From NCBI GenBank assembly GCA_034440595.1, contig JAWXCH010000361.1, forward strand, positions 1 through 52,301: DNA of 52,301 nucleotides, read 5' to 3'. Each line of letters begins with the position of its first letter. Position 1 is the stretch's first letter. Below the pieces are notes generated by a model. That model saw only the letters and a list, made by a program, of their open reading frames with translations, did no database searches and had not been told where the DNA came from. Below are positions 8,572-28,875 of the stretch, piece by piece. The DNA comes from Planctomycetota bacterium (lineage in GTDB: Bacteria; Planctomycetota; Planctomycetia; Pirellulales; JALHPA01). The translations under genes were made by a program, and so were the position numbers.

Positions 8572-10152
8572 CTAATCCGACGTCAGCATCCCGTTCAGCC
8601 GCACGCGCGCTGCTTCAAACTCCCCCCAGGCCTGTTTGCTCAATTTGCCCTCCAGGCGTTTCATTGGTCCTTCTAATCCGCTCTTCAGCAGATCGACTTG
8701 ATCCTTTCGCGGGCGTAGCAGGCGAGTCGGATCGTCGAAATAGATTGGCGCCGTGTGTGCAAACTGGACGATCTCTTCGACCGGCTGCTCCATGCAGCGC
8801 ACCGCCAGCCAGGAGCTGCCTTGAATTGTGACGGGCACCTCCCATACTTGAAATCCGGTCGCATCGGCAGCTTGTTTAGTCGCGTCGATTTGCTTCACCA
8901 CCACACCGTTCACCACTACTTCCACTTGCTGGAGCGGGCGAGTCCCTCCCGCCTTAATTTTCAACTTCAGCGGAAGCGATTGGCCCGCGGCTAGTTGCTT
9001 GTGGTCACCGGGCCGCAGGCCATCGGCTTCGATTAATAGCATCGGCCCATTCGTGACAAAGCTGCGACCGGCTTTGAACCCAGCGAACCATTTTTCAAAA
9101 GTCAGGGGACCATCTATATGGACGTATACACGGCTGTAGCCGAGCGGTACGCCCATCATGCCGTTGGCAGTACCGCCACTAATCGGCAGCACGAGGCCAG
9201 TGTTCAAAATGGCATAGTAAGTCTGAAACACGTACTGCATCCAGCCGGCGCTATCGTCGGTCAGCTTTAGCGAAGCGGGCGGACGCTCTCCCCAATTTTT
9301 AAACGGCGGATCCTTGCGCCACATACGGTTATTGGCAATCGGAAAACTATCGATCCCGTCCAGCGCGATGACCATGCTGGACCATGCCCAGCCGTGCTTT
9401 TCCAGGTCGACAACGGCCCCCTGGCTTTGTGCGTCATGGATCATCTGGATCACAGGGGGAACTTTGTTGGTCAACGGTGCTCGTTGACCAAGCACAATGA
9501 GTGCGCCGAGCGCCGTGTTTTCGCCGGCAATGTCGCCAATTTCGTATTCGGTATTCAGCGTCCAATACAGGTGCCGCGCGTCGATCGACTTGGCCTCTCC
9601 CTTGGTCGGAACCGGCTGTCGGTTGATGCCTTGTGGGGCTTCGTCCTTAGTTCTGGCCCAGGCTGTGATGGGAAACGCTACGTTGACATCCTCGGCCAGT
9701 TGCATCACGGTCAAGTCCTGCGGCGGCGTATGCACGTGTGTGTCCCCTGAGTACCAGCCAAGCGCTGCCATATCAAACAGCCGCTTCAGTGGCACAGAGA
9801 GTTTAGTAGGCGATTGTTCGCTCACCTCCAATTCACCGTCGTGCGGCAAATACTCCTTGCCATGTTCGACATGCAGCTTGTATTTTCCTGCCGGCAGTTT
9901 CAAAGTGGCCGGGCTGGTCGGAATAGCAATGAAGACTTCATTGCCTCCCCAATAGGGGTCGCCGTGCTTGGCATAGGACGTTTTTTCGACGAACGGATGG
10001 ACCGTCTTACCGGCCGAATTGTGCAAGTAAAACCGTGCACCAAGCGGAGCGTTGGACTTGGCGTCCACAACGCTCAGCACCACCTCCCCGGCCACGAGCG
10101 GTCTGGTCAGCAGCAACAACAGGAACGTCACAAAGCAGTAGCGGAGGGGCAT
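8572..10152 (-). CDS. Secreted CehA/McbA-family (PHP-like) metallohydrolase
   Basis: Signal peptide; WYSGDTHVH, LGYSRVYV, GRSFVTNGPML and FAHTAPIY motifs typical of the planctomycete family. Confidence 0.8.
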   Translation of the reverse strand: MPLRYCFVTFLLLLLTRPLVAGEVVLSVVDAKSNAPLGARFYLHNSAGKTVHPFVEKTSYAKHGDPYWGGNEVFIAIPTSPATLKLPAGKYKLHVEHGKEYLPHDGELEVSEQSPTKLSVPLKRLFDMAALGWYSGDTHVHTPPQDLTVMQLAEDVNVAFPITAWARTKDEAPQGINRQPVPTKGEAKSIDARHLYWTLNTEYEIGDIAGENTALGALIVLGQRAPLTNKVPPVIQMIHDAQSQGAVVDLEKHGWAWSSMVIALDGIDSFPIANNRMWRKDPPFKNWGERPPASLKLTDDSAGWMQYVFQTYYAILNTGLVLPISGGTANGMMGVPLGYSRVYVHIDGPLTFEKWFAGFKAGRSFVTNGPMLLIEADGLRPGDHKQLAAGQSLPLKLKIKAGGTRPLQQVEVVVNGVVVKQIDATKQAADATGFQVWEVPVTIQGSSWLAVRCMEQPVEEIVQFAHTAPIYFDDPTRLLRPRKDQVDLLKSGLEGPMKRLEGKLSKQAWGEFEAARVRLNGMLTSD

Positions 10153-12581: not shown

Positions 12582-15500
12582 TTACCCCTCCCCTTCGCTA
12601 CGGATGCCAAACTCGCGGCGCATCTCAGATAGCACACTGCTGTCGCGGATCAGGGCCGCCATCAATTGCGGGAACGGCAATCCGCCTAGCTCCACCGCAC
12701 GCATCACGAGAAACGGCACAGGGCTGTGCGGTTCAATCGATTGCAGCGCGGTGGCGGCCTCGGAGAGTTGCGCGTAAATCGCTTCGCGTGTGTTCAATCG
12801 TGATTTAGCGGACTGACCGTTGGAAGCACTCATGGTACCATCCTCATTGACAGTCTCCTGGGCAAGGACATCACCCGCAGCAGGTCCTTTCTTCTGCACA
12901 ATCTGCATCGCCAGTGCACGGCACTCTTCCAAAGCCGGTCGAATCGCCGACAAGCCAGGCGCGTCCGGGCCCATCTTTTGGCGTAAAGTTTGCCCCAGCC
13001 ATTTTAGCTCGTTCAATGCCTGTGTAATGTCTTCGGCCACACGCTTACACTGCTCATGCGTGGTAATGCGTACGGCCTTCTCGACCAGTTCGCTGCTCAA
13101 CGAAGAACGACCATCCATCCCTAGATTCCATTGCTGGAGGCTATAGGTGTCCTCACCTGCATAGACGACCGGAGTCTGCTTCAATGTGAGCGGATAGCAA
13201 GACCCGCGATCTGGATCGTCCAGCCAATTGAACGGTCCGGCACGGACTTCCAAGTCGTCGTCTTCGATTTCAGGTTCCAGGCGATCCCAACAGACTTCGA
13301 CCAGCAGTCGAATCAAATGCAGGCCATCGCGGACCCCGGCAAACCCGTACTTCTTGGTCAGTGCCTCAAGAAATCTTGCCGCCACGAGCAAGTTCTTGGA
13401 ACGCTCGGTCAGCACGTCGCGGCAAATCGTAATGATCTGGTTCCAGTCGGCGCGGACCCATTCCGTCGGTCGCATCGGATCGTCTTCGCGAAAAGACTCC
13501 GGGTTGATCTCCTTACGGGCTATTTCCAATTCTTCTCGAAGCGGAAATGGCACACTTTCGCCCGCCGGATTGTCGCCCGGAATTGGCAAGAGCAGCTCCC
13601 GAAAATCGAACAACGGAGGCGAACCGGCGGTCGATTGGCGATATTTAGAGGCATCTTGCACCTGACGAATCAGTTCGTCGATATCGGCAATGTCGGTGGC
13701 CATGGTCGCAACACTCGGGGTAGAAGTCGAATTGGTCGTATCATCCACCGCTCGTGACTGGTTCACAATCGGCGGGGATTCAATCTCACGATAAGTTTCA
13801 GGTTCAGGTTCAAACGTGATTGCAATCGGATCCTGCTCAGATTCAAAATCCGCAGCAGGAGTTTCGTATTCAGTGCCCGATAGTTCAGCGAAAGACTCGT
13901 CGACTATCGGTGGTTCGATGGGCAGGTCTGGTGTTAGTTCTTCCGCCATGCCTGTGGCGTCAAACTCCGCGTTTGAAGAGTCGCCGGTGTCGCCGAGCAA
14001 GGCTGCCAGTTCAGGGTCCAGCTCGAATGGCGCCGGTGCGGGCTGGTCGTCAGCCGGTGGATCGGTGAATTCAGGCGTATCAACATCCGGGGCCTGCGAT
14101 GGTGATTCGTCGAATGACGGAATCTCGTCGGTTTGCGAGGAAGCAGGCTGATCCAGATCACCAAGCAATGCAGCCAACTCAGGGTCCATTGTGGTCAAGT
14201 CGACCGCAGGAGCCTCTTCCGCCGGTTGATCGTAGGTAGGTGCAGATTCTGTGTTCGCATCCGCGGCATAGGGGTCGCTAGCAGGCGTCTCGCCGCTATT
14301 CGCAAGAAAGTCCTCACGCAGCAGTGCGGCCAACTCGGGGTCCAACTCCATTGCCGGCATCGGCTCGGATGGTTCTTCGGCGGCTGGGGTTTCAGCGTAT
14401 GCCTCTTCGTGTGCTGGAACCTCTGCTAACAAAGCGGCCAATTCTGGATCCATTTCGGCTGGCACCTCGGGAGTGCTCTCCCCCAATAACGCTGCCAGTT
14501 CCGGGTCCAACTCAGCAGGAGGTTCCGACGCCGTCTCGCCAAGCAGGGCCGCCAACTCGGGGTCAAGTGTCGCCGGGTCTGGAGCCGCACCTTCGGCCTC
14601 GGCCAACATCGCGGCCAACTCGGCATCGGCGGCAGCACTAGCCGCCTCGTCGGTCGCGAATAGTTCTTCGGCGGCAGGTTCTTCCACCGGAGCCGCGTGC
14701 TGGACTCCGGCACCTTCGTTCCAGCCGCCGGCCAACATCGGGTAGGCGGTCGAAACGGCACGAATTGCGGCCAATTCGATAATGTCGCGCCCTCGCACTG
14801 GCAGGACCGGCATCAGCCCCCACGCGGCTAGTCGCTCGGAAACCAGCGACGAAAACCGCGCCGCGGTGCTGACGGCGACTTCATCATCATCGCCAGTGCG
14901 ATAGGAATGCAACGGCATGCTGTCGAGTTGCAGATGCTTGTCCGGAGTCAGACTCCAGCCAGATTCGATGAACCCGCGACCAAAGAGTGCCGCGGCCAAC
15001 AACGCGGAATTTCCCCACAAATAATCTGCGTGGCTGCCGCCAAACTCTTCAAAGTCAAACGCATCGACCGATTTGTAGTTCTCGCCAAACGGCGGCCGCA
15101 GCAGAAAGCCCGGCACCGTCAAGCCGAGGAACGCACTGTCTGGCAAGCTTTGCAGCGATTCCCAGGCGTACTTGGTATCGGCATCGAGCGCGAAATCCTC
15201 AGCCGTAACCGCCGCGCTGAGCGACGACAGAAACGGCACATTCAGGCTGTAGCCAATTAAGGCGGCACGCCCGAGCAGTTCGATCTGCGGCACCGTGATA
15301 TTGAAGTTGTACAGGCCGACCACCAGTCCCCAGGGGTGCTCGCTTTCGGCCTGCTGAGCGGTCAGTGCGTGGAGAATTCCCGATTGGCCGACGTCGTACG
15401 AATTTTGCAAATCGGCAAGAAACTCCGCCTGACTCAGATCGTAGAGCCGAATTTGAACCTGCGCCGACTTACTGCACCTGCGGAGTAGCCATTCCAGCCC

Positions 15501-15896
15501 ACGCCAGGCCGATTCCACGGTGCGAAAGTCTGGTGAATGGAGAATAGCCTTCATCAAGGCGGTTGCTTCATCGCCGCGCAGTCCCTGGACCTGGTCGACC
15601 TGACGGTGGATACCGTCCGGGTGAAAGTCGTCGAATTCCCTGAACTCCACGGTCGCGGTGCTCTGGTCCGGAAGCGGCAAATTCAGCCGCGGAACCACCT
15701 GGCCGAGCAAATCCTCCAGAGATTCAAACGTCGGCTTGAGGGGCCGCATTTCGGCGATCTGCTGACTATCGGCAGACTCACCCCGATTGTCCCGACCTGA
15801 AAAGTCACCAAATATCGCAATCCGAAACGGGATCTCGGACTCTGGCCGTGCCCGACTCCGCTCGAGTTCATTCAGTTGGCCGAAACGGAGTTCCAT
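12582..15896 (-). CDS. T6SS fusion protein: TssB/TssC-like sheath domain + acidic repeat linker + TssA (ImpA_N and C-terminal EPHSP domain)
   Basis: N-terminal PFRIAIFGDFSGR (VipA-like); ILHSPDFRTVESAWRGLEWL, FLLRPPFG and YLWGN (VipB-like); C-terminal LLLPIPGDNPAGE...SKNLLVAARFLEAL...GFAGVRDGL (ImpA_N) and EPHSPVPFLVMRA. Confidence 0.85.
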   Translation of the reverse strand: MELRFGQLNELERSRARPESEIPFRIAIFGDFSGRDNRGESADSQQIAEMRPLKPTFESLEDLLGQVVPRLNLPLPDQSTATVEFREFDDFHPDGIHRQVDQVQGLRGDEATALMKAILHSPDFRTVESAWRGLEWLLRRCSKSAQVQIRLYDLSQAEFLADLQNSYDVGQSGILHALTAQQAESEHPWGLVVGLYNFNITVPQIELLGRAALIGYSLNVPFLSSLSAAVTAEDFALDADTKYAWESLQSLPDSAFLGLTVPGFLLRPPFGENYKSVDAFDFEEFGGSHADYLWGNSALLAAALFGRGFIESGWSLTPDKHLQLDSMPLHSYRTGDDDEVAVSTAARFSSLVSERLAAWGLMPVLPVRGRDIIELAAIRAVSTAYPMLAGGWNEGAGVQHAAPVEEPAAEELFATDEAASAAADAELAAMLAEAEGAAPDPATLDPELAALLGETASEPPAELDPELAALLGESTPEVPAEMDPELAALLAEVPAHEEAYAETPAAEEPSEPMPAMELDPELAALLREDFLANSGETPASDPYAADANTESAPTYDQPAEEAPAVDLTTMDPELAALLGDLDQPASSQTDEIPSFDESPSQAPDVDTPEFTDPPADDQPAPAPFELDPELAALLGDTGDSSNAEFDATGMAEELTPDLPIEPPIVDESFAELSGTEYETPAADFESEQDPIAITFEPEPETYREIESPPIVNQSRAVDDTTNSTSTPSVATMATDIADIDELIRQVQDASKYRQSTAGSPPLFDFRELLLPIPGDNPAGESVPFPLREELEIARKEINPESFREDDPMRPTEWVRADWNQIITICRDVLTERSKNLLVAARFLEALTKKYGFAGVRDGLHLIRLLVEVCWDRLEPEIEDDDLEVRAGPFNWLDDPDRGSCYPLTLKQTPVVYAGEDTYSLQQWNLGMDGRSSLSSELVEKAVRITTHEQCKRVAEDITQALNELKWLGQTLRQKMGPDAPGLSAIRPALEECRALAMQIVQKKGPAAGDVLAQETVNEDGTMSASNGQSAKSRLNTREAIYAQLSEAATALQSIEPHSPVPFLVMRAVELGGLPFPQLMAALIRDSSVLSEMRREFGIRSEGEG
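13990..14630 (-). repeat. Intragenic peptide repeat DPELAALL x6 (plus one DAELAAML variant)
   Basis: Read directly from the translation of 12582..15896. Confidence 0.95.
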
Positions 15897-16211: not shown

Positions 16212-17351
16212 ATGATCGCACGGCGCAAGTCCCATTCAAGGTCCAAACTCGGTGCGCGGCGAGCAATTTGGACGCTGTCGCTTCTTACGATCTTGGCGGC
16301 CCTAACTGCTGGATCGTTCGCAATCGCTCAAGAAGAGTCGGATAGCAAGAAAGCGACCAGCGAGACCATAGCGGACCCCAGTGTACCGGCTCCCGTGAGG
16401 GCGGCGGCAGCAACCGACGCAACCAGCGCAACCACTGCTGCGGCTGCTTCCAATGAGGTCAAGATTGGAGTATACGCCAGTCAGATTCACTCAGTAAATT
16501 TGCGTGAGAATCAGTTCAAGATCGACTTCTATATCTGGTTCCGCTGGACCGACCCAGATTTGGAACCGCATAAGACGTTTGAAGTCGCCAACGGCCAGAT
16601 CGACAATGACGAACCACCTACCGAGCCGGTAAAGTTGAACGATGGTTCGTATTATTCCTACCGGCATGTGGTGGCGACCATCACGCAGTTCTGGGACGTG
16701 ACACGGTTTCCGATGGACGATCACAAGCTGCTGGTGATCATCGATGACAGTGCCAACGAAGTCGACAAATTGCAGTACGTGGCCGATGTCAAAAACACCG
16801 GCATCGACAACGATTCCAAAGCGCCCGGCTGGGACATCGGAAAAGCGGCCGGCGAAGTTTCGGTAAAGACCTACTCGACAAACTTTGGCGATACGAACCT
16901 GGATACCGGCAACGTTTCAAAGTACTCGCGATTTATCTTTTCCGTACAGTTGGAACGAGGTGGCATCGGGGCGTTCCTGAAGCTGTTTTTTGGCCTGTTC
17001 ATTGCCGTTGCCATTGCCCTGCTAGCATTCTTCATCAAGCCGACGGAGGTCGATCCCCGGTTTGGCTTGGGAATTGGTGCCATTTTTGCCGCCGTGGCCA
17101 GTCTGTACGTGGTGACTTCGTCGCTGCCCGATTCGCAAACGATGTCCATGGCCGATATGCTGCATTTACTGGCGTTTCTGGTGATATTCCTGTCCCTGCT
17201 GGAATCAACGTGGTCGTTATCTGCGTACGCCAGCGAGGAAGAATCCAAAGTCGCGCTCTCCAAACGGGTTGACCGGCTTTCGTTTGTAGTGCTAACCGCG
17301 GCATATGTCGGACTAACCATCTGGACGATTTCCGCTACCTGGTGGGTTTAG
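16212..17351 (+). CDS. Prokaryotic pentameric ligand-gated ion channel (GLIC/ELIC-like Pro-loop receptor)
   Basis: Signal peptide; V.IGVY...I.SVNLRENQFKIDFYIWFRW.DP beta-strands; Pro-loop DVTRFPMDDHKL; GW; pre-M1 LER; four TM helices. Confidence 0.85.
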   Translation: MIARRKSHSRSKLGARRAIWTLSLLTILAALTAGSFAIAQEESDSKKATSETIADPSVPAPVRAAAATDATSATTAAAASNEVKIGVYASQIHSVNLRENQFKIDFYIWFRWTDPDLEPHKTFEVANGQIDNDEPPTEPVKLNDGSYYSYRHVVATITQFWDVTRFPMDDHKLLVIIDDSANEVDKLQYVADVKNTGIDNDSKAPGWDIGKAAGEVSVKTYSTNFGDTNLDTGNVSKYSRFIFSVQLERGGIGAFLKLFFGLFIAVAIALLAFFIKPTEVDPRFGLGIGAIFAAVASLYVVTSSLPDSQTMSMADMLHLLAFLVIFLSLLESTWSLSAYASEEESKVALSKRVDRLSFVVLTAAYVGLTIWTISATWWV

Positions 17352-17556: not shown

Positions 17557-19719
17557 GTGCCAACGTTTTCACAGGACGATCGGCCGATCGGCATCACGAC
17601 CCCGTTGGGTAAGGACAAGCTGCTGCTCGATTCTTTTGGCGGACTGGAGGGAATCTCCCAGCCATTCCGTTTTGAGGCCAGCGTACTTGCCCCGGCGGAT
17701 ACCACCGTCAAGTTTGAAGACCTCCTCGGTCAGTCGGTGACAATACGCCTGGATGTGCAAGGTTCCGACCAGAACCGGCGCTTCTTCAACGGGGTGGTCA
17801 TGCAGCTCAACGAAGGGGCGCGCGTCCGATCGTCCGACGGAGGTGAGTTGTTCACGCGATACCGAATGGTTCTGATGCCGAAACTGGCGCTCTTGCAGCG
17901 GCGGACCAATAGCCGCACCTTTCAGCATCTGAGCGTCGTCGACATTCTGAAAAAGGTGCTGACCGGCCTGCCCGTCAAGTGGCAGATCACCGGCACATTT
18001 GAACCACGCGACTACTGCGCGCAGTACCAGGAAACCGACCTCTCGTTTGCCAGTCGCCTGATGGAAGAAGAAGGGATCTACTACTTCTTTACGCATACCG
18101 ACGGCAATCACGAGATGGTGGTCACCAATGACCCGGCGAATTTCGGCACCATCTCGCCGGCAGTCAAATTCGAGGACTTCCAGGGACACCGCAGCACTGG
18201 CACGCAAGAAGATCGAATCCTGCGCTGGAGTAAAAGCCAGGAAATGCGTTCTGGCAAGTTCACCGCCTGGGACTATAACTTTGAACTCCCCGACAAGCAC
18301 CTGGAGGCGGAAAAAACCGTCATGCCATCCGTCGCGGCGGGCACAGTAACGCACAAGTTGAATGTAGCCAATTCCGCGCTGGAGCTATATGACTTCCCCG
18401 GCGAATACGCTCAACGCTTTGACGGGATCGACGCCGGTGGTGGTGAACAGGCCTCAATGCTGCAAAAAATCTTTACGGACAATAAGCGCACGGTTGAGAT
18501 CCGCATGCAGCAGGAATCGGTCGCCGCGCTGCGGATCAATGGCGAAAGCAACGTCCGCAAACTGGCCGCCGGGGCGAAATTCACCCTCGCCGAGCATCAC
18601 AACGGCGACGGAGAATATGTACTCACCACCGTGGAGCACCGTGCCAATCTGGAAGGAACCTATACCTCCAACCAGCAGGCCGAACTGAAGTACGCCAACG
18701 GATTTCAGGCGATTCCTTCGGCACTCCCGTTCCGCCCGCAGCGAACCACCCCGAGGCCAACGATTCGCGGCACGCAATCGGCGGTAGTGGTCGGACCTGC
18801 CAGCAGTGAAATCTATACCGACAAATATGGCCGTGTAAAAATCCAGTTCCCGTGGGATCGCGAGGGGCAAAAGGACAGCGATAGCTCCTGCTGGGTGCGT
18901 GTCGCACATATCTGGGCCAGCAAGCAATTCGGCGCATTTGGACTGCCGCGGATTGGGGACGAGGTGGTCGTCGCGTTTGAGGAGGGGGACCCCGATCAGC
19001 CGATCATCGTCGGTAGCGTGTACAACGCGGCCAATATGCCCCCGTACGTTTTGCCGGACAACATGACGCAGACCCTGCTAAAGACTCGCTCGACAACGCA
19101 GGGAACGACCGAGATGTTCAACGAACTACGGTTCGAGGACAAAAAGGATTCCGAACACATCTACTTCCATGCCGAGCGAGACTTCAACCGCGTGGTCGAG
19201 CAAAACGACACACTGAAGGTTGGCTTTGAGAAGCATGAAGGAGATGACAAGGGAAATCAGACGATCGAGATCTTTGGCCATCGAAAAATCACTGTCAAGG
19301 AACGAGACGAAGCGACCACCATCGAAAAAGGTAAACGCACGGTCAAGGTCCAGTTGGACGATGCCAAGGAAGTGGTCGAAGGAAATCGACTGGCCACCGT
19401 TTCCAAAGGGAATGACACGATAACTATCTCCGAGGGAAACCGCTCCACCACCATCGACAAAGGTAATCGAAGTTCGACGATCTCGATGGGGAACGAAACG
19501 ATCGACATTACTGCGGGAAAAAGTTCAACCACCGCCGGCCAGGAAATAGAGTTGAAGGTAGGAAGCAATTCAATCGTCATCAGTCAAAGTGGCATCAAGA
19601 TCAAAGGGATGATGATCTCGATCGAGGGGGATGTGTCGTTGACGGTTAAAGGATTGATGAGTGAAATCAGCGGCACCGCCATGCTGACTGTGAAGGGTGG
19701 CCTAGTGCAGATTAACTAA
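17557..19719 (+). CDS. vgrG: T6SS spike protein VgrG
   Basis: EGISQPFRF, QYQETDLSFASRLMEEEGIYYFF, DKYGRVKIQFPWDR, SCWVRV, PRIGDEVVVAFEEGDPDQP and NELRFED motifs; gp5-like C-terminal repeats; AGGAG before GTG. Confidence 0.97.
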   Translation: MPTFSQDDRPIGITTPLGKDKLLLDSFGGLEGISQPFRFEASVLAPADTTVKFEDLLGQSVTIRLDVQGSDQNRRFFNGVVMQLNEGARVRSSDGGELFTRYRMVLMPKLALLQRRTNSRTFQHLSVVDILKKVLTGLPVKWQITGTFEPRDYCAQYQETDLSFASRLMEEEGIYYFFTHTDGNHEMVVTNDPANFGTISPAVKFEDFQGHRSTGTQEDRILRWSKSQEMRSGKFTAWDYNFELPDKHLEAEKTVMPSVAAGTVTHKLNVANSALELYDFPGEYAQRFDGIDAGGGEQASMLQKIFTDNKRTVEIRMQQESVAALRINGESNVRKLAAGAKFTLAEHHNGDGEYVLTTVEHRANLEGTYTSNQQAELKYANGFQAIPSALPFRPQRTTPRPTIRGTQSAVVVGPASSEIYTDKYGRVKIQFPWDREGQKDSDSSCWVRVAHIWASKQFGAFGLPRIGDEVVVAFEEGDPDQPIIVGSVYNAANMPPYVLPDNMTQTLLKTRSTTQGTTEMFNELRFEDKKDSEHIYFHAERDFNRVVEQNDTLKVGFEKHEGDDKGNQTIEIFGHRKITVKERDEATTIEKGKRTVKVQLDDAKEVVEGNRLATVSKGNDTITISEGNRSTTIDKGNRSSTISMGNETIDITAGKSSTTAGQEIELKVGSNSIVISQSGIKIKGMMISIEGDVSLTVKGLMSEISGTAMLTVKGGLVQIN

Positions 19720-19777: not shown

Positions 19778-20722
19778 ATGGGCGTAGTTCTGCAGATCAC
19801 CAACGGACCCTATACCGGTCGCAAGACGCACCTGCTGGCAGGCCAGGTCTTGCAAGTTGGCCGTACCGAATGGGCCGATTTCTCGGTCCCGAGTGACGCA
19901 CGCATGCACGACGTCCACTTTACGGTCGCCTTTCAATCCGGTTCATGCATTCTGCGCGATCTAGGTACGCCGAACGGTACGCTGGTCAACGGTCAACGTG
20001 TCACCGAAATCGCCTTGAACCATGCAGATCAGATCCAGGCCGGCACGACCATCTTTCGTCTGGTTGTAGAAGGGACCGCCAGTGGAACAGCCACCGGTTC
20101 GGCAACCGCCAACAACGGCGCGTCCGCAGCCGGTAGCGGCAAATTCAGCGGGTTTGTTCGCGTGGCACCACCCACTGCCGCGGTGATCTGTGCCGACTTC
20201 AGTCTGGACGCCGATGCCCAGGCGGTCCTGACGCCGACCATCACCCCACGCGATTTTGTCACGCAGCTCATCGAGCGCGAACTATACGCCGACGCGCTGC
20301 GGTTCATGGCGCATGCCTTGCCCAAGCCAGAGGCCGTCTGGTGGACCTGCCTGGCCGCACGCAAAGCCGGGGGCGAAAAGCTGGCCGAAAAAGACGCCGC
20401 TGCCATCGCTGCTGCCGAGGCCTGGGTGGTTGAATCCACCGAAGAAAACCGCCAACAAGCTGCCAAGGCGTCTGAAGCTTCGCGGTATGAGACCGCCGCT
20501 TCGTTCGCCGCCGCCGCCGCAGCTTGGAGTGGCGGGAGCCTGGCACCTCCGGGGCTTCCAGAAGTCCCCCCGGCACCGACCTTGACCGCACAGGCTGCAA
20601 TTGGTTCAATTCGCCTCTCGGCCGTCGCCATCGGCGGAGCAAAGCTGGTTCCAGTGCAGCGCGACCTGCTCAACCTGGCCATCGACATTGCCGACGCCAA
20701 GAACCGTTGGCCAGAAAAGTAA
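19778..20722 (+). CDS. FHA domain + DUF6931-like domain protein
   Basis: FHA motifs VGR...DARMHDVHF...LRDLGTPNGTLVNG; C-terminal ALRFMAHALPKPEAVWW...AAEAWV...WSGGSLAPP typical of VgrG-linked DUF6931. Confidence 0.78.
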   Translation: MGVVLQITNGPYTGRKTHLLAGQVLQVGRTEWADFSVPSDARMHDVHFTVAFQSGSCILRDLGTPNGTLVNGQRVTEIALNHADQIQAGTTIFRLVVEGTASGTATGSATANNGASAAGSGKFSGFVRVAPPTAAVICADFSLDADAQAVLTPTITPRDFVTQLIERELYADALRFMAHALPKPEAVWWTCLAARKAGGEKLAEKDAAAIAAAEAWVVESTEENRQQAAKASEASRYETAASFAAAAAAWSGGSLAPPGLPEVPPAPTLTAQAAIGSIRLSAVAIGGAKLVPVQRDLLNLAIDIADAKNRWPEK

Positions 20723-20764: not shown

Positions 20765-21058
20765 ATGCCCCCTGCCGCGCGACTGACCGATTTGCATATC
20801 TGCCCCGCCGTGACGGTCCTTGTTCCACACGTCGGCGGACCCATTTCTGCGCCTGGCGCACCGACCGTACTGATCGGAAAAATGCCCGCCGCCTGCATGG
20901 GAGACATCGCCATTTGCGTCGGGCCACCCTCGTCCGTCATCAAAGGCTCCGCCACGGTCTTGATCGGCGGCAAACCGGCAGCCCGCGTCGGCGACAACAC
21001 CGCACACGGTGGGGTGATCGCCCCGCCGGGATGTGTGACGGTAATGATCGGGGGGTGA
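20765..21058 (+). CDS. PAAR domain spike-tip protein
   Basis: PAAR, PAAC and PAAR motifs with His/Cys zinc ligands; 97 aa, no toxin extension. Confidence 0.95.
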   Translation: MPPAARLTDLHICPAVTVLVPHVGGPISAPGAPTVLIGKMPAACMGDIAICVGPPSSVIKGSATVLIGGKPAARVGDNTAHGGVIAPPGCVTVMIGG

Positions 21059-21109: not shown

Positions 21110-21847
21110 ATGCGATTTCTGTTATTCACAGTAGTTGTGGTCAGTCTTCTGACAGGATTGAAGGCGGAAGAATTGCCTCCAAAGAGCCAGGGCTTTGAAG
21201 TGGAGATGCACAAGCGCATTAACGCGTATCGCGACGAACTGGCCGCACTCCAGAAGAAAGATAAGACGGAAGAAAACTTAGATCGGATAAAGTTACTTCA
21301 AGACACTTTACCAACGAAGGAGGTTGAGGCCGCCCTATTTCGGATCAAGGAGGGGATGCCTCGGGAGAAATTGATCGATCTTCTGGGTAAGAATTTCTCG
21401 AAGACGGATCACCGGGTAGAGATAAATTGGTCGAAGGGGCGGGATATGTTGGAAGTCTCTTATAGGGACAACCGCATCGTCGGCTATCGTGCTAGGTTAG
21501 GAGGTTGGAAGCATTCTGAAACTGAAAACGGTTTCAGTAAAAGTGCAGACTGGGAGTGGGTGCCTGTTAATGCGCTTTCCAAGAAAATCAGGAAAGGAAT
21601 GTCCGTTGCGGAGTGTGTGGCAATTCTCGGAAAGGATTGTGAAGTTACGATCGAGCCTGAAAATCTTGTTTGGGAGGTCAAGTCTGCCGGCATCGAGGAC
21701 CCCGGAACGTTGGTGGTATACATTGAAGATGGTTTAGTGTGCGGAACCATGATTATTTGGACGAACGCAAATGGGACGCGCGGATTCAAATGCTTCGGGC
21801 GAATTTTCAAAAGAGCAAAGGTAGAGGATCTCCTAAAAGAGCAGTAA
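21110..21847 (+). CDS. Secreted hypothetical protein with two SmpA/OmlA(BamE)-like repeats
   Basis: AAGGAG RBS; signal peptide; repeats RIKEGMPREKLIDLLG and KIRKGMSVAECVAILG; visibly more AT-rich than its neighbours. Confidence 0.7.
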   Translation: MRFLLFTVVVVSLLTGLKAEELPPKSQGFEVEMHKRINAYRDELAALQKKDKTEENLDRIKLLQDTLPTKEVEAALFRIKEGMPREKLIDLLGKNFSKTDHRVEINWSKGRDMLEVSYRDNRIVGYRARLGGWKHSETENGFSKSADWEWVPVNALSKKIRKGMSVAECVAILGKDCEVTIEPENLVWEVKSAGIEDPGTLVVYIEDGLVCGTMIIWTNANGTRGFKCFGRIFKRAKVEDLLKEQ

Positions 21848-22447: not shown

Positions 22448-24421
22448 CTAATACGTCCACTTCAGCTCAAATCGCAAGAGCGACGCATACCAGTGGTCGC
22501 TGGTCAGAGCGAGACCGGTTCCGATGCCGGCCTCCAGCAGCCCGAGGTCGCAGCCCATGTCGTAGACAAATCGCACGCCGGGGTAGACGTTCAGAATTGC
22601 CACCGGGTCAACCGCTTCGATAAAACCGTCTGGTGCGGTTTGCTGCCCATCGAGCGCCCACCAACTGACGAACTCCAGCGTGGGAATAATCGCGTAGTCA
22701 TCGCTCTCGTACAGCAAGCGGCTAACACCTGCACCGGCACGCAGCACCTGCCCCGATGCATCCAGGTCGCCGCCCAGCGGCACCCAGTAACGTAGCTCGT
22801 AATGCAGGTCGGTGATCTTGTTGTATTTCTGACGGAATAGGAAGCCGGGCTCAATGGATATGTGCCCGTTGCCCAGGCCTTTGCCCGCCGATCCTGTCGC
22901 AAAAGTTGTCTTAAAAAACTGCGTCATCTGCCAGGTATCGCCATCCAGCATCACCAGCTTCGTCGCCAGTGACATATCGCCAAAACCGGTCGTGTTGGGA
23001 TTTTGCTCAGGATCCAGACAGATAATCGGCAGGTCCGTTGTCGCCGAAAATTTTGGTCCGCCGACTTCCATCCGGACGCGCATTTCCTGATAGTCAACTG
23101 CCGTTTCTGGAATCGCCGGGCCGCGCACCCCTTGCTTGGCCCAAAAGAATTCCGCTCGATCTGGATAAGTCCAGTCGTAGGCCAGATCGGCACGCAGGCG
23201 AAAGTTATTCGACGGCTGCGCGATTTCAATTTCTTGAATGGCAAAGGGTAGTCGTTCGGTACCGACCCCATCCTCGACCAAACAAGCGTTGTTCCAGCCC
23301 CAAAGCGGAAAGCGTTTTGGTCCTAACGGCCCACACTGATCGCAATCTCCACAGCCGCCACAGCTTTCACAGCCCCCCATCGCTGAGTCCATTTCCATCC
23401 CCGGTTCAATCATTCCGCCTTCGATAACTGCTCCAGGGGGCAGCGATCCGTCGGGCATCGGGCCTTCAATGGTTCCACCGGGAATCTCTTCGATCGTGCC
23501 GTTTGGTGGCGGCAGCATGAACTCGCCAGGGCCAAGCTGTGCGACTGAAGTGGGCTGAGATCTCGCGGAATACGATACAGGCATATTTCGGGAGCGGTCG
23601 CTAATCCAATCGCGCGTCAGGTATTGGCGTCGGTCGGTCTGCGTTGCGGTCGGAGGCATCGGTGGTCCACCAACCGCCTGCTGCACACCGCCGGTCAAGT
23701 TCTGCGCCGCATCAATGTCACCCTCATGGGAAGCTTGTCGATTCGCTTCATTTGGTGCCGGAGGATGTGCCGAGCCGGACATCAATTGCCGGCGCGACGC
23801 TTTGCCAGTGGGAATTGCCTGCCAAGCTGATGCATTGATCGCCCCAAATCCGCTCGGAGCACCGGGCTGTGCTGTCATGCCGTCCGGTGCTGTGACAACC
23901 CCGACGTCAAGTGGCGGTGGTTGAATGGCAAATGGTTGCGTCGGCTGTTGATTCTGCAGAGTTCGCAGCGCCTGTAAGTGCGGCGACTCAATTGCCGGAG
24001 TGATGGCCGCGCTGCTCGCAGGTGCCGCTGGCTCGATACTTACGGGCGCGGCATATTGAATCTGCTGGCCGTAATAGGCTGGCTGCGGCATGTCGGTCAC
24101 GGGCTGCTGATAGTAGGCGCTCTGCACGCCGGCGCTTGGCATAGCGGATTGGCCGCTTGCCGTTACTACGGTGTCATAGTTCGCCGTTACGGCACTGGAA
24201 TAAGGCGAACTAGATTGCTCCGCGCTGGCAAATGGATCAAATGCCGGTCGCGAAGTGCCCACGGCAGAGGCCGCGACCGCCGGTGTGGTCGCGTCTAAGG
24301 GTGGCCCACCAAACAGTGGACTAGACACCGGCGGAGACTGGCCGCGCGCAAGCCCAGTCTGTGCGATCACAAGGACCGACAGCATCAGCCAGCGAATTGA
24401 CCAGTTCAATCGCACAGTCAT
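22448..24421 (-). CDS. Planctomycete-type secreted protein with low-complexity N-half, Cys cluster and putative C-terminal outer-membrane beta-barrel
   Basis: AGAGGA RBS; signal peptide; P/A/Q-rich region; CESCGGCGDCDQC; alternating beta-strands ending RFELKWTY. Confidence 0.65.
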   Translation of the reverse strand: MTVRLNWSIRWLMLSVLVIAQTGLARGQSPPVSSPLFGGPPLDATTPAVAASAVGTSRPAFDPFASAEQSSSPYSSAVTANYDTVVTASGQSAMPSAGVQSAYYQQPVTDMPQPAYYGQQIQYAAPVSIEPAAPASSAAITPAIESPHLQALRTLQNQQPTQPFAIQPPPLDVGVVTAPDGMTAQPGAPSGFGAINASAWQAIPTGKASRRQLMSGSAHPPAPNEANRQASHEGDIDAAQNLTGGVQQAVGGPPMPPTATQTDRRQYLTRDWISDRSRNMPVSYSARSQPTSVAQLGPGEFMLPPPNGTIEEIPGGTIEGPMPDGSLPPGAVIEGGMIEPGMEMDSAMGGCESCGGCGDCDQCGPLGPKRFPLWGWNNACLVEDGVGTERLPFAIQEIEIAQPSNNFRLRADLAYDWTYPDRAEFFWAKQGVRGPAIPETAVDYQEMRVRMEVGGPKFSATTDLPIICLDPEQNPNTTGFGDMSLATKLVMLDGDTWQMTQFFKTTFATGSAGKGLGNGHISIEPGFLFRQKYNKITDLHYELRYWVPLGGDLDASGQVLRAGAGVSRLLYESDDYAIIPTLEFVSWWALDGQQTAPDGFIEAVDPVAILNVYPGVRFVYDMGCDLGLLEAGIGTGLALTSDHWYASLLRFELKWTY

Positions 24422-24807
24422 TTCCTCTAAATTGCATAAACTCGCTGCCTTGGTGTCGGAAGGTGAGTAAATCGACCCGCCGCGCAACAAATCAACCAGA
24501 GACAGCTAAACGCCTCGGCAAACTTATCGGCTGTATCAATCAACCGGATTGAGTGAACTAGAGAAGATTTGCGGATTAGCCGGATTGTGCTACCCGCCGT
24601 GCGCGATGCTATCATGGCCAGCGTGCTGTGGTCGCAATGCTGACAGCATGCTGATGTTTACAACATATCGCGGCACTGCTACATTGCGCGATCATTATCC
24701 CCCATTTTTATGGCGTCAAGTTGTGTTGCCGCCAAGGTTTGGGCACAGTCCGTTCCCCCGCTAGCAGAGCTGCTGCGGTGGAGCGCTAGCCAGCAGGTCA
24801 TGTTGCG

Positions 24808-26274
24808 ATGCGGAATCTGCCAGTCCACTGGTACGAAGGACTTTTTCTCAGGCCTCAGCACTTCCAGGCTGCGGATCGGTATTGGACTGAACTGATCGCC
24901 ACAGCCGACCAATGGGGTCAGCCCTATAACTATGGCGTGCATGCCTTTGAGTACAGTCGCGAAGCGCTGGCCAACAATCAGTTTCAAATCCATACGCTGC
25001 AAGCACGCATGCGCGATGGCACGCTGATTATGCTTGGCGGAGGGAGTGAACCCGACCGACTCGATCTGAAACCGACCTTCAAAGAACTGGGAGCCGGCAA
25101 GATCGATCTGGCCGATGCCTTTGGCCGCGAAAGCACGGTCATTGTCTATTTGGCTATTCCAAAACTGCAACTCGGTCGTGCCAATGTTGGCCGTCCTGGC
25201 GAGTTCGACCGGACGCGCTATATCGAAGCAGACACGCCCGCGTTTGATGAAACGCAAGGTGGTGGCGATCAATCCATTCAGGTACGCACACTCAACGCGC
25301 GTTTGCTGCTTTCGACACAGGATCTGTCGGGCTACGAAATCCTGCCGATTGCACGCATCCGTCGCGCCAGCGAAGAGCAGGCGGTTCCTAGACTCGATCC
25401 AGATTACATTCCGCCGGTGCTGTCGATCGGTGCCTGGCCCGCTTTAGGACGCGACACCGTCCGCGCCATCAACGATGTTATTGGCCAGAAGATCGAAGTC
25501 CTCACTTCCCAAATCATCAATCGTGGTATCGGGCTGGATAGCCGCGATCCGGGCGATTCGGATCGTATTCTGATGCTGTCGCAACTGAATACGGCGCATA
25601 GCGCGCTTTCGATTCTGACCGCGGCGCAAGGGGTCCACCCGTTCAATGCCTATATCGAACTGAGCCGCATTGTCGGTCAGCTCTCGATCTTTGCACGTGA
25701 GCGCCGTACTGAGGAGATGCCTCCCTACGACCACGACGAACTAGCGCGGATTTTCGCCTGGGCACGCACCCGGATCGAACAGCTGATCAATATGGTCCGC
25801 GATTACGAGTTCGAGCAACGCTACCTGATCGGTGTGGGACTGGGTATGCAAGTCACGCTGGAACCCAAGTGGTTCAACAGCGATTGGCAGTGGTATATCG
25901 GCGTAAACAAAGGAGACCTGACCGAGGCCGAATGCCGCGAACTGCTTTCGCCGGGCATGCTGGACTGGAAATTCGGCAGCGGTCGGCAGGTCGAAATTCT
26001 GTTTAAGAATCGTGCCGCCGGCTTGAATCTGACGGTGATGGAGCGCCAGATTCGTGCGTTGCCAGCCCGTAAGGATTGGATCTATTTTGAAGTGGATCGC
26101 CGTGATTCGCCCGCCTGGCGCGACGTGCAAGAGACACAGAGCATGGCCATGCGGTTGAAGGATTCGTTGATTCTCAATCGAGACCGCCTACAAGGGGAGC
26201 GGCAACTGATCGTCTCGGCGCGTGGCAAGGCAGCGACACTGCAGTTCGCCTTGTTTGCTGTGCCGTCCGCTTGA
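24808..26274 (+). CDS. tssK: T6SS baseplate subunit TssK
   Basis: VHWYEGLFLRPQHFQ, LDPDYIPPVL, HPFNAYIEL and PPYDHDEL motifs. Confidence 0.95.
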   Translation: MRNLPVHWYEGLFLRPQHFQAADRYWTELIATADQWGQPYNYGVHAFEYSREALANNQFQIHTLQARMRDGTLIMLGGGSEPDRLDLKPTFKELGAGKIDLADAFGRESTVIVYLAIPKLQLGRANVGRPGEFDRTRYIEADTPAFDETQGGGDQSIQVRTLNARLLLSTQDLSGYEILPIARIRRASEEQAVPRLDPDYIPPVLSIGAWPALGRDTVRAINDVIGQKIEVLTSQIINRGIGLDSRDPGDSDRILMLSQLNTAHSALSILTAAQGVHPFNAYIELSRIVGQLSIFARERRTEEMPPYDHDELARIFAWARTRIEQLINMVRDYEFEQRYLIGVGLGMQVTLEPKWFNSDWQWYIGVNKGDLTEAECRELLSPGMLDWKFGSGRQVEILFKNRAAGLNLTVMERQIRALPARKDWIYFEVDRRDSPAWRDVQETQSMAMRLKDSLILNRDRLQGERQLIVSARGKAATLQFALFAVPSA

Positions 26275-26330
26275 TGCCGCCGGAATTCAGTGGCTATAGA
26301 TATTCAAATTTACCGCTTCGCTAGATTGGC

Positions 26331-26969
26331 ATGACGCCCAAATTCGCCCAAGCCGTTGACCCGATTTTTCTCCATGTGCTGGAGTTGTTGGATCGTATCG
26401 CGCGCGACGAGCGAATCTCTCCGCAGGACGAACGCCTTCGCGTCCGTGCGTTAATCGATCAAGCACAAGCGTTCATTGGCAACAGTCAAGAATGGGATCT
26501 GGCCAAGTACGCGATTGTTTCTTGGATCGATGAAGTGTTGCTCGAGGCCCCGTGGCAAGGTCGCGAATGGTGGAGCAACAACGTCCTTGAAGTCGAGATG
26601 TTCAACACGCGCTTGTGCAATGAGATGTTTTACGTCCGCGCGCAAGAAGCCTCCAGCTTGCAGAGTCGCGATGCACTAGAAGTCTTTTATGTCTGCGTGG
26701 TGCTCGGCTTTAGAGGGCTGTACCGAGACCCAACGATTGCCGCCATGTTTACGCAGGTCCACGGCCTGCCCCCGGACCTGGAGAGCTGGGCCAAGCAGGC
26801 GTCACTAGCGATTCGACTTGGTCAGGGACGTCCGCCACTGGCTGGACCTCGGCGACAAATTGCCGGAGCGCCCCCGTTGCGGACCAGACCATTGGTTGTC
26901 TGGTCCTGGCTATCCGCCGCATTGCTGTCGGTGATGGTCGTGGTGTTTTACACACTGTTTATTGCCTAA
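26331..26969 (+). CDS. tssL: T6SS membrane subunit TssL/DotU
   Basis: AKYAIVSWIDE and LEVFYVCVVLGFRGLY motifs; C-terminal TM; directly follows tssK. Confidence 0.92.
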   Translation: MTPKFAQAVDPIFLHVLELLDRIARDERISPQDERLRVRALIDQAQAFIGNSQEWDLAKYAIVSWIDEVLLEAPWQGREWWSNNVLEVEMFNTRLCNEMFYVRAQEASSLQSRDALEVFYVCVVLGFRGLYRDPTIAAMFTQVHGLPPDLESWAKQASLAIRLGQGRPPLAGPRRQIAGAPPLRTRPLVVWSWLSAALLSVMVVVFYTLFIA

Positions 26970-27000
26970 GCGCGCCTGCTATGTGCGGGAAATTTGAACT

Positions 27001-28875
27001 ATGAGCACTGCCGAACCTGAACCGAAACCACGCGGTAAGATCAGCCGTTTTTTCGGTGCCATCTTTGGTTTTCCGCGCAAGCTGCTCTCTCTCTCGCTTC
27101 CGACCAAGGCCGCCCTGGTCGTACTATTCGTTCTGCTGACGGTTGTCATCGTGGCCTGGATCGTGTTTCTGGTCGATCCGGAAAGCGTACCCTGGCGGCA
27201 CAGCATGGGCTTTGGCCGCATCGTGGCGGTGCTATGCCTGCTGACTCTGATCCCAATCGTGCTGCATCGCGGGCTAAAACTCTGGCTGGAGGGCGAAAGT
27301 TCACAATTCCCGGACATTGATTTCGCCTGGCGTGCCGGTGTGGATGCACTGAAGCGCAACGGAATCGACCTGGGTGCTACTCCACTGTTTCTCGTGCTAG
27401 GTTCATCCGATGACCAGCAAGAGCAGGCGGTCATGACCGCGTCTGGATTGAGCTTGCGTGTGCGAGATGTCCCTGAGGGGCCATCTCCGTTGCACTGGTA
27501 CGCGAATCCAGACGGCGTGTTTCTGTTCTGTAGCGGTGCGAGCTGGCTGAGTGCCTTGTCCGAACTGAACGAAAAGCGCAAGACCGACGATGTGGCCCGT
27601 GCGCTGCCGGACTTGGAAGGCCCAACCGAGATGCGTATGGCCGCCGGTGAAATGCAGGCTCCGACGGCACTTTCGCCGGTTGGATTTAGCAGCGGTGCCG
27701 CACCAGTGCCTGCCTCTGGGAGTGGCTCGTACGGTGCATCCTCGGGGGCTCCGGTTGCCGCCGCGCCAGTCTCGCAGGTCAATCAAGGTGACGCGCGCGG
27801 CACGATTATGCTCGACTCCTACACCGCCAGTGCGCTGGCAGCCAGCATGAATCCGCCAGCGGCAGGTGCGGCAGGGGGAGGCGCAGTTTACAGTGGATCG
27901 GCGGCCAATCTGGAAGCGATGGCCATGCAAGAAGCCGCCGGCAGGCATGGCACCATCATGCTCCAGGCACCGCTTGGCGATCCTTCCAAGGCCGGCACAT
28001 TTGCCGCACCGCAGACTATGCAGACACCTGCGCCCAGCATGGCAACGCCTGCGTATTCGGGTGGGTCACCGCAGCGATCTGCCGCACTACTCCCTCCGCA
28101 GGAATCGGCCGAACAACTGCGCCGCCTAGGCTATGTCGGCCAACTGCTGCGACGTGCTCGCCAGCCGTTGTGTGGTGCCAACGGGATTCTGACGCTGCTG
28201 CCATTTGAAATGGTCGCCGGGGGCACACGCGAAGCCGAAGAGTTGCAACGCGCCACCAAGAGCGACCTGCGCACGTTGCAGCGCACATTAGAACTTCAAT
28301 GCCCCATCACGGCACTGGTGGTTGGTTTGGAAAAAGAAGCCGGCTTCCGCGAACTGGTTCGCCGCGTCGGGCGCGATCGCACCAGCGTGCAGCGGTTTGG
28401 ACAACGCTACGACGTGCGTAGCATCGCTACCACCGAGGAACTGGCCTCGCTCTGTGCACACGTGTGCGGCACGTTTGAAGATTGGGTCTATACCCTGTTC
28501 CGTGAACAAGGTGCCCTCAGCCGACCCGGCAATACCCGCCTCTATGGGCTACTGTGCAAGGTCCGCACGCAGCTTAAGAACCGCTTATCGAGTGTGCTGG
28601 CCAATGGCTATGGCCACGAGACGGCTGGTTCCGGCCAGGACGCGCTGTTCTTTAGCGGGTGTTACTTTGCCGCCACCGGCGACAGCAACGACCGGCAGGC
28701 GTTTGTGGCCGGCGTCATGCAAAAGCTGACCGAAGAGCAGGAAGAGGTCGAATGGACGCAGCGCGCTTTACGCACCAACCGCCGCTGGCGCCGCGTGGCC
28801 GTGGCCGGCCTGATCGCCAACGCCGCACTTCTAGCGACCCTCGGCGGCATGATTGTGTATAAGCTGTTTTGGTAA
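27001..28875 (+). CDS. Short TssM/IcmF-related protein (cytoplasmic ImcF_N-like domain only)
   Basis: Follows tssKL; 2 N-terminal TMs; PLFLVLG, LRRARQPLCGANGILTLLP, GLEKEAGFREL and FSGCYFAATG motifs; ends at a C-terminal TM. Confidence 0.75.
   Translation: MSTAEPEPKPRGKISRFFGAIFGFPRKLLSLSLPTKAALVVLFVLLTVVIVAWIVFLVDPESVPWRHSMGFGRIVAVLCLLTLIPIVLHRGLKLWLEGESSQFPDIDFAWRAGVDALKRNGIDLGATPLFLVLGSSDDQQEQAVMTASGLSLRVRDVPEGPSPLHWYANPDGVFLFCSGASWLSALSELNEKRKTDDVARALPDLEGPTEMRMAAGEMQAPTALSPVGFSSGAAPVPASGSGSYGASSGAPVAAAPVSQVNQGDARGTIMLDSYTASALAASMNPPAAGAAGGGAVYSGSAANLEAMAMQEAAGRHGTIMLQAPLGDPSKAGTFAAPQTMQTPAPSMATPAYSGGSPQRSAALLPPQESAEQLRRLGYVGQLLRRARQPLCGANGILTLLPFEMVAGGTREAEELQRATKSDLRTLQRTLELQCPITALVVGLEKEAGFRELVRRVGRDRTSVQRFGQRYDVRSIATTEELASLCAHVCGTFEDWVYTLFREQGALSRPGNTRLYGLLCKVRTQLKNRLSSVLANGYGHETAGSGQDALFFSGCYFAATGDSNDRQAFVAGVMQKLTEEQEEVEWTQRALRTNRRWRRVAVAGLIANAALLATLGGMIVYKLFW

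Follow-up and report, generated by a model that had tools for sequence, protein, structure and literature searches.

What might a type VI secretion system (T6SS) gain from a TssA protein that carries its own piece of sheath? The question is raised by a stretch of 52,301 nucleotides from a bacterium of the Planctomycetota (order Pirellulales; assembly GCA_034440595.1), called the window below, which is the entire contig JAWXCH010000361.1 (C361 of genome G000). On its minus strand, a single open reading frame (ORF) joins a sheath-like domain (SLD) to a TssA through a long acidic region. The product is the TssA of a T6SS that is otherwise canonical and contains TagJ, extended at its N-terminus by the SLD and a tether. 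As for what the extension does, the reading that we prefer, with a probability of roughly one half, is that the SLD may serve as a pseudo-subunit of the sheath, unable to propagate it and held by its tether to TssA at one sheath end. The ORF and its parts are as follows.

12582..15896, minus strand: whole ORF, the SLD-linker-TssA fusion (P0001), 1104 residues plus stop, uninterrupted
15576..15896, minus strand: TssB-like N-terminal part, residues 1-107, with a partial Pfam VipA match and without the C-terminal helices of TssB
14709..15575, minus strand: TssC-like middle domain, residues 108-396, equivalent to TssC1 68-401 (VipB, AlphaFold2 [AF2], VIA-align and Foldseek)
13695..14708, minus strand: acidic, predicted disordered region, residues 397-734, with an AF2 predicted local distance difference test (pLDDT) score below 50 over 401-734
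12585..13694, minus strand: short-type TssA module, residues 735-1104 (TIGR03363), with AF2 pLDDT mostly 70-93

A sequence-only reading of the ORF had proposed this three-part layout, and it was borne out, with a TssB-like and TssC-like portion at 1-396, an acidic disordered portion at 397-734 and a short-type TssA at 735-1104. The peptides quoted in its support are all present in the translation: RIAIFGDFSG (25-34), ILHSPDFRTVESAWRGL (118-134), FLLRPPFG (264-271), YLWGN (292-296) and EPHSP (1055-1059). At E <= 1, a Pfam scan of the fusion returned only T6SS_VipA (a partial match of residues 14-106 to profile positions 18-113 of 155; E 1.2e-7, 32.1 bits), VipB (PF05943; residues 113-376, E 1.4e-39) and ImpA_N (PF06812; residues 770-893, E 9.2e-24), with no VipB_2 (PF18945). 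Against the curated NCBIfam models, the fusion scored 195.1 bits with the short TssA model TIGR03363 (cut-off 160.85; residues 764-1094, profile positions 2-350 of 353), 130.3 bits with the TssC model TIGR03355 (cut-off 271.5) and 25.6 bits with the TssB model TIGR03358 (cut-off 97.25). Since only the TIGR03363 cut-off was passed, by this test the protein is a TssA and neither a TssB nor a TssC.

The fold of the N-terminal domain was examined next to known sheath structures. AF2 modelled the SLD (residues 1-396) from a 45-sequence alignment with a mean pLDDT of 93.7 and a predicted template-modelling score of 0.93. Its top Foldseek matches were T6SS sheath large subunits, led by TssC1 (5n8n_B, E 3.2e-18), and VIA-align placed model residues 101-396 on residues 68-401 of that chain (Z 29.1, 296 residues, root-mean-square deviation 3.3 Å), in agreement with the sheath fold that had been claimed. 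Single-chain sheath proteins of pyocins, phages, Photorhabdus virulence cassettes (PVC) and the antifeeding prophage (AFP) aligned to model residues ~20-396 with Z 13-18; the best of these were the PVC/AFP baseplate-entry chains (Z 16.8-17.6 over model residues ~20-396), which score no higher than ordinary sheath chains. On this model, the SLD is a one-chain copy of the TssB N-terminal part followed by TssC residues ~68-401.

The SLD thus shares its fold with canonical TssB and TssC, and differs from them in being a single chain without VipB_2, the TssC N-terminus or the TssB C-terminal helices. The parts of TssC that are absent are its last ~100 residues, which form the gpW/gp25-like VipB_2 domain, and its first ~67 residues. 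The structural match ends at TssC1 residue 401, and a hidden Markov model (HMM) of the gp25-like C-domain, built from four canonical TssCs, detected all four of these controls and none of 249 collected proteins of the SLD family. In the sheath, the TssC C-domain carries the strand-exchange "handshake" and the contact with the tube. The other missing region, the TssC N-terminus, holds the ClpV-recognition helix, according to excerpts of published work. Identity to the TssC of the same genome is only 31%. The sequence-only reading had pictured a minimal protomer able to polymerise, which we do not uphold: the gp25-like handshake domain is lacking and the SLD falls below the NCBIfam cut-offs for both TssB and TssC, so it cannot count as an ordinary polymerising protomer. 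Two family-specific motifs frame the SLD at its two ends.

15858-15896, minus strand: N-terminal xExxFGxL motif, residues 1-13, with G6 invariant in 45 sequences
14721-14741, minus strand: C-terminal LxGxW motif, residues 386-392, with G390 and W392 invariant

At the other end of the protein, the TssA module contains two recognisable domains.

13218..13589, minus strand: ImpA_N (Nt1) domain, residues 770-893 (Pfam, phmmer)
12594..12788, minus strand: TssA C-terminal oligomerisation domain with EPHSP, residues 1037-1101 (phmmer)

Its identification as a TssA stood up to both the TIGR03363 cut-off and phmmer, in which residues 760-928 matched the Nt1 domain of Burkholderia cenocepacia TssA1B (6hs5_A, E 3.6e-12) and residues 1037-1101 matched the C-terminal domain of the same TssA1B (6h8f_A, E 3.8e-5, chain positions 8-72 of 75), for which AF2 modelling of the full protein gives a confident helical fold in the fusion. 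By its sequence, the module is of the short TssA1 type, with Nt1/ImpA_N and a small C-terminal domain, the same composition that excerpts of the work on the short B. cenocepacia TssA1B clade describe (PMC6232143). Known TssAs begin at or near ImpA_N, whereas the fusion has 734 additional residues in front of it. A search for ImpA_N in the genome, which is 91.5% complete, gave no match beyond the fusion. The rest of the apparatus was found on other contigs, including the canonical sheath genes that the sequence-only reading had proposed to look for: contig C351 carries tssB (171 residues), tssC (494 residues, VipB plus VipB_2) and the 3' end of clpV, and contig C193 carries the 5' end of clpV, tssG, tssF, tssE, tagJ and two hcp genes.

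Between the two ends, residues 401-734 have a net charge of -81 and contain six copies of one short motif.

14535..14567, minus strand: motif copy 1, LDPELAALLGE, residues 444-454
14478..14510, minus strand: motif copy 2, LDPELAALLGE, residues 463-473
14421..14453, minus strand: motif copy 3, MDPELAALLAE, residues 482-492
14313..14345, minus strand: motif copy 4, LDPELAALLRE, residues 518-528
14157..14189, minus strand: motif copy 5, MDPELAALLGD, residues 570-580
13989..14021, minus strand: motif copy 6, LDPELAALLGD, residues 626-636

The consensus is (L/M)DPELAALL(G/A/R)(E/D). Its eight core residues do not vary among the six copies, yet they are encoded by 2-5 synonymous codons per position, and the mean nucleotide identity between copies is 0.74. 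An identical peptide written in varied codons therefore indicates selection on the peptide rather than a recent DNA repeat, and the linker can no longer be regarded as the passive leash that was first supposed. Of the 18 close homologues P0002-P0019, 17 carry the motif in 2-11 copies and one, P0018, lacks it; it also occurs four times in two Maioricimonas proteins without TssA. More broadly, an acidic LxxLL-type motif lies at the C-terminal end of 114 of the 249 family proteins.

The same architecture was sought in 151 sampled genomes of the order, where an ImpA_N match was found in 51 and an SLD together with ImpA_N in one frame of more than 1000 residues in 12 (G000, G083, G052, G002, G070, G098, G030, G046, G064, G023, G026 and G008). 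The fusion is the sole ImpA_N match in eight of these 12, while a free short TssA accompanies it in the other four (G023, G064, G046 and G052). G008 and G026 each have the fused gene and the canonical tssC match on one contig, 2-3 kb apart. The protein is not unique, and the SLD belongs to a broad family: a search with residues 1-400 against 1.84 billion representatives gave 4098 matches at E <= 1e-3 and 747 at E <= 1e-30, the weaker of the 4098 presumably including canonical TssCs. Among the best 150 matches, many are ~480-530 residues long, with the match reaching the last residue. The 249 collected proteins were classed with purpose-built HMMs, in a set biased by the length window used for collection.

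SLD only: 79/249
SLD and C-terminal tail: 68/249
Full TssB, long linker, SLD and tail: 49/249
N-terminal tail, SLD and C-terminal tail: 25/249
SLD and TssA: 25/249
N-terminal tail and SLD: 2/249
No SLD core: 1/249

The SLD has been tethered independently in two ways, to TssA in 25 proteins and to a full TssB in 49. In a FastTree phylogeny of the SLD rooted on canonical TssCs, which comprised the 25 fused proteins, four controls and every second of the 223 others (112), or 141 tips altogether, the fused rows share an ancestor that holds 31 of the tips. Of the six non-fused tips within this clade, three are short, P0009 is labelled partial and one is the Maioricimonas protein P0021. As the short and partial tips are probably fragments, a single ancient fusion of SLD and TssA is plausible on this tree.

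The gene context was surveyed in 80 loci (L022-L101), whose record titles place SLD genomes in about seven phyla, namely Planctomycetota, Desulfobacterota, Acidobacteriota, Nitrospirota, Verrucomicrobiota, Candidatus Binatus and Alphaproteobacteria. The next gene downstream of the SLD gene is vgrG in 40 of the 80 and tssB in eight, and the next gene upstream is clpV in 23. No ORF combining SLD and TssA occurs among the 80, which were gathered with a pattern that the query itself fails (FR instead of FQ), so that close relatives of the fusion were probably missed. In several Acidobacteriota-type loci, the SLD gene comes first, before tssB-tssC-hcp-tagJ, and a TssA frame of ~600-660 residues lies further down. 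Public records name proteins of the family "TssA" or "contractile sheath large subunit". For example, the Ruegeria conchae plasmid NZ_CP081104.1 has these genes arranged as clpV ... SLD-protein, vgrG, PAAR, tagH, tssK, and its SLD gene is annotated as "sheath large subunit" (L007:17625-21773) with a start at 18363 that looks too short. The real ORF has 1382 residues and begins at an ATG at 17625, overlapping the end of the upstream gene, which adds a TssB-like N-terminal domain as in P0068.

This Ruegeria protein leads to the nearest published relative, TssCL. The available excerpts of Suria et al. 2022 (PMC9515649) name TssCL in roseobacter T6SS1 clusters without assigning it a function, describe it as two VipA domains plus one VipB, count it in 20 of 28 roseobacter references and report it as undetected outside the Alphaproteobacteria; those excerpts make no mention of a missing gp25-like domain, of the motifs or of a fusion to TssA. 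Like the fusion, TssCL combines a short divergent VipA part and a VipB in one chain, the latter ~31% identical to TssC in the same excerpts (PMC9515649), and both proteins coexist with normal tssB and tssC genes. The query SLD is 32.7% identical to the TssCL-type protein of R. conchae over 98% of its length, and that protein likewise contains an extended acidic stretch bearing LxxLL-type motifs, with DPELAALL at its extreme C-terminus. The two forms differ at their ends, in that TssCL has an extra full TssB domain at the N-terminus (two VipA matches in P0068 and P0223) and no TssA, while in the fusion VipA matches once and only in part, no additional TssB is present, and a TssA follows. What is new here is therefore the joining of a short TssA to a TssCL-type SLD, the TssCL form itself being known from roseobacters.

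A second TssC-like protein has also been described in Agrobacterium, where TssC40 (Atu4340) is non-redundant within a TagJ-class T6SS locus, according to excerpts of Lin et al. 2013 (PMC3702570). We considered this Rhizobiales protein as a member of the SLD family and rejected it: its Rhizobium tumorigenes counterpart (461 residues) has VipB plus VipB_2 and no VipA part, and is thus a near-complete TssC paralogue, unlike the SLD. In the literature searched, no paper was found on a TssA-sheath fusion, a planctomycete T6SS, the missing gp25-like domain or the motif, and a 2026 review mentions neither sheath-like, TssC-like or TssB-like proteins nor planctomycetes.

How, then, might such a protein work? 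Contractile systems offer a precedent: Afp2/3/4 and Pvc2/3/4 are sheath-fold paralogues used only at one end of a sheath. These paralogues retain the handshake domains and are not known to be joined to any assembly chaperone, and the SLD differs in both respects. The simplest reading of the SLD is a pseudo-subunit acting at an end, because it is tethered in two ways to parts that sit on the sheath and is encoded inside T6SS operons. Also in its favour, the Nt1 domain of short TssAs binds the sheath (Fecht et al. 2024). The C-terminal domain of TssA would oligomerise into a ring, as that of B. cenocepacia does in excerpts of Dix et al. 2018 (PMC6232143), where 32 subunits form a D16 double ring that bears the Nt1 domains on its outer side. 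Many SLD heads would then hang on polyanionic tethers of ~340 residues around the sheath end of TssA, where each could dock on sheath-type surfaces as a pseudo-subunit. Being unable to propagate the lattice, the SLD would couple TssA to the sheath end, or mark or stabilise that end, and the DPELAALL motifs would be putative binding sites in trans for a conserved T6SS partner. In other lineages, the SLD may act in trans, either free or tethered to an extra copy of TssB, as in TssCL. We give about even odds to the baseplate-proximal and the distal end.

Several observations weigh against a docked pseudo-subunit. The SLD lacks the very domain by which sheath subunits interlock, which leaves docking of a lattice-like kind uncertain. 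In the model of the isolated domain, its N-terminal segment packs in cis and might therefore be no donor arm. When the whole protein was modelled with AF2, the motif helices stayed below a pLDDT of 50, with no sign of docking in cis. The closest studied system, the H1-T6SS of Pseudomonas aeruginosa, has no TssCL gene in the excerpts of Suria et al. (PMC9515649), and therefore the SLD module is not generally required. The literature is also split on where a short TssA sits: Fecht et al. 2024 docked Nt1 at the distal end, whereas the 2026 review assigns short TssAs to the baseplate, along with their partners TsmB and TagJ. The "cap" role assigned to the TssA part by the sequence-only reading is, for a short TssA1-type protein, unproven.

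A bolder extension of the tethered pseudo-subunit would make the SLD an overlooked "end subunit" of TagJ-class T6SSs in about seven phyla, an outer sheath layer without the gp25-like domain that might form a baseplate ring of pseudo-protomers together with TssE, or else a distal plug. Short TssAs would work through it, and the DPELAALL array would be a new multivalent docking motif. The pairing with TssE in a "ring zero" is attractive because TssE consists only of a gp25-like domain, exactly what the SLD is without. Taken as a whole, we consider this picture rather a long shot.

An alternative is that the SLD and the motifs mimic sheath surfaces and peptides, forming a decoy or recruitment hub that would concentrate TagJ, ClpV and TssA Nt1 at TssA and tune assembly or recycling. 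An SLD without any of the known lattice connectors fits such a role, and the E-L-A-A-L-L of the linker resembles the N-terminal motif of TagJ-class TssCs (EFASLL in HsiC1); Ruegeria TssC has EFEALL. TagJ, reported in the 2026 review to bind short TssA, TssB and ClpV, is present in 11 of the 12 fusion-bearing genomes. However, its co-occurrence does not discriminate, because TagJ is found in many T6SS genomes without an SLD too (45/151), indeed in most of them. Moreover, the motif is not the core function of the family, given that members of ~500 residues in Acidobacteriota, Desulfobacterota and Nitrospirota consist of an SLD only and are tailless. The fusion and the Ruegeria protein also share their tail motif although the N-termini of their cognate TssCs are unlike (LLDQIV here, EFEALL in Ruegeria). 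A complex prediction of the ClpV N-domain (1-165) with TagJ and the peptide 455-484 (score 0.02, mark 0.34) weighs neither way. Mimicry of this kind is possible, though on balance we think it unlikely.

Another explanation, compatible with the others, concerns the internal methionine.

13701..13703, minus strand: Met732 codon, a possible internal start or relic tssA start, with GAGTG upstream

This ATG (13703-13701) and its upstream GAGTG are present as the sequence-only reading described them. Initiation here would yield a free short TssA, and the full-length protein would be a minor or regulatory isoform. The confident TssA fold of the full-length AF2 model begins at ~735, just after Met732, with the helix 738-750 already part of it, and of the 21 fusions aligned, 19 have a Met-Ala 30-70 residues ahead of the part homologous to TssA. 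The additional free short TssA in four of the 12 fusion genomes indicates that a free form is compatible with this biology. Yet the upstream GAGTG is weak, P0108 and P0129 are without the methionine, and the conserved residue may be a relic of the start codon before the fusion; possibly the Met-Ala is that relic, possibly a real internal start. A two-product gene strikes us as quite doubtful.

The SLD could instead be a factor for loading the spike or baseplate, one that now binds VgrG/PAAR or cargo in place of the sheath. In favour of this, the downstream vgrG neighbours counted above are co-directional and come from several phyla, and vgrG is a divergent near neighbour in the window. Adjacency within T6SS operons is weak evidence of contact, however, and the fold that was kept is that of the middle layer of the sheath, which is not known to touch tube or spike. 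Among the 249 family proteins, the SLD is fused to TssA and to TssB and never to VgrG, and we hold a loading role to be improbable.

Finally, the frame might be an error in which a missed stop or frameshift joined two genes, or a decaying gene. Nine DNA runs, mostly microbial-mat metagenomes, contain this stretch. X1 is possibly the source sample, and its contigs show neither an indel nor a differing letter where they cover the ORF. Contigs of three others (X2, X3 and X4) match portions of the ORF and of its linker (13695-14708) with 0 other letters, 0 gaps and no indel rows wherever they cover it, no single piece covering the whole ORF and some bins being uncovered in X2-X4. Although the source assembly is fragmented and of metagenome type (599 contigs), this agreement, the repetition of the single frame in 12 genomes of the order and in 25 database proteins, and the confident folds predicted for both end domains make an artefact very unlikely, close to refuted.

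The mode by which a short TssA engages the sheath, and the end at which it does so, are still argued, and here a short TssA is covalently tied to a module of sheath fold. Elsewhere, the same SLD is linked to TssB, and it is encoded within T6SS operons of many phyla, which makes it a concrete, testable handle on the problem. The planctomycete fusion can be seen as a natural Rosetta stone that links TssA to an overlooked and widespread sheath paralogue. The distribution of the SLD also corrects the published view of a spread confined to the Alphaproteobacteria, and the names "TssA" and "sheath large subunit" under which its proteins are annotated conceal that they form a distinct family.

The window contains further T6SS genes, all on the opposite strand to the fusion in the list below, as well as an FHA gene.

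17557..19719, plus strand: vgrG, divergent neighbour (Pfam Phage_GPD, Gp5_trimer_C, Phage_base_V)
19778..20722, plus strand: FHA-DUF6931 gene, directly after vgrG
20771..21055, plus strand: PAAR-like stretch (tblastn with the Ruegeria PAAR protein, 50% identity)
24808..28875, plus strand: tssK, tssL (DotU) and a short TssM-like ORF

A DUF6931-like ORF, labelled hyp23940, also follows vgrG in most roseobacter loci. The TssM-like ORF (27001-28875, plus strand) encodes only 624 residues and matches IcmF-related_N only, and Ruegeria TssM used as a tblastn query against the genome at 1e-5 gave no match; the membrane complex may be reduced or very divergent. On contig C193, ORFs for a HipA-like kinase (309 residues) and a HIRAN-domain protein (253 residues) lie between tssE and tssF (L021:4648-6343, minus strand). 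Between the fusion and vgrG is an ORF of 379 residues (16212-17351, plus strand) with a weak, sub-threshold match to the ligand-binding domain of neurotransmitter-gated channels; the equivalent place in roseobacter loci holds an unrelated hypothetical gene and an ion-transporter gene. Three sizeable ORFs without a Pfam match lie in or beside the T6SS region (8572-10152, minus; 21110-21847, plus; 22448-24490, minus) and could encode effectors, immunity proteins or accessory proteins. The product of the last of these has a relative next to an SLD gene in locus L022.

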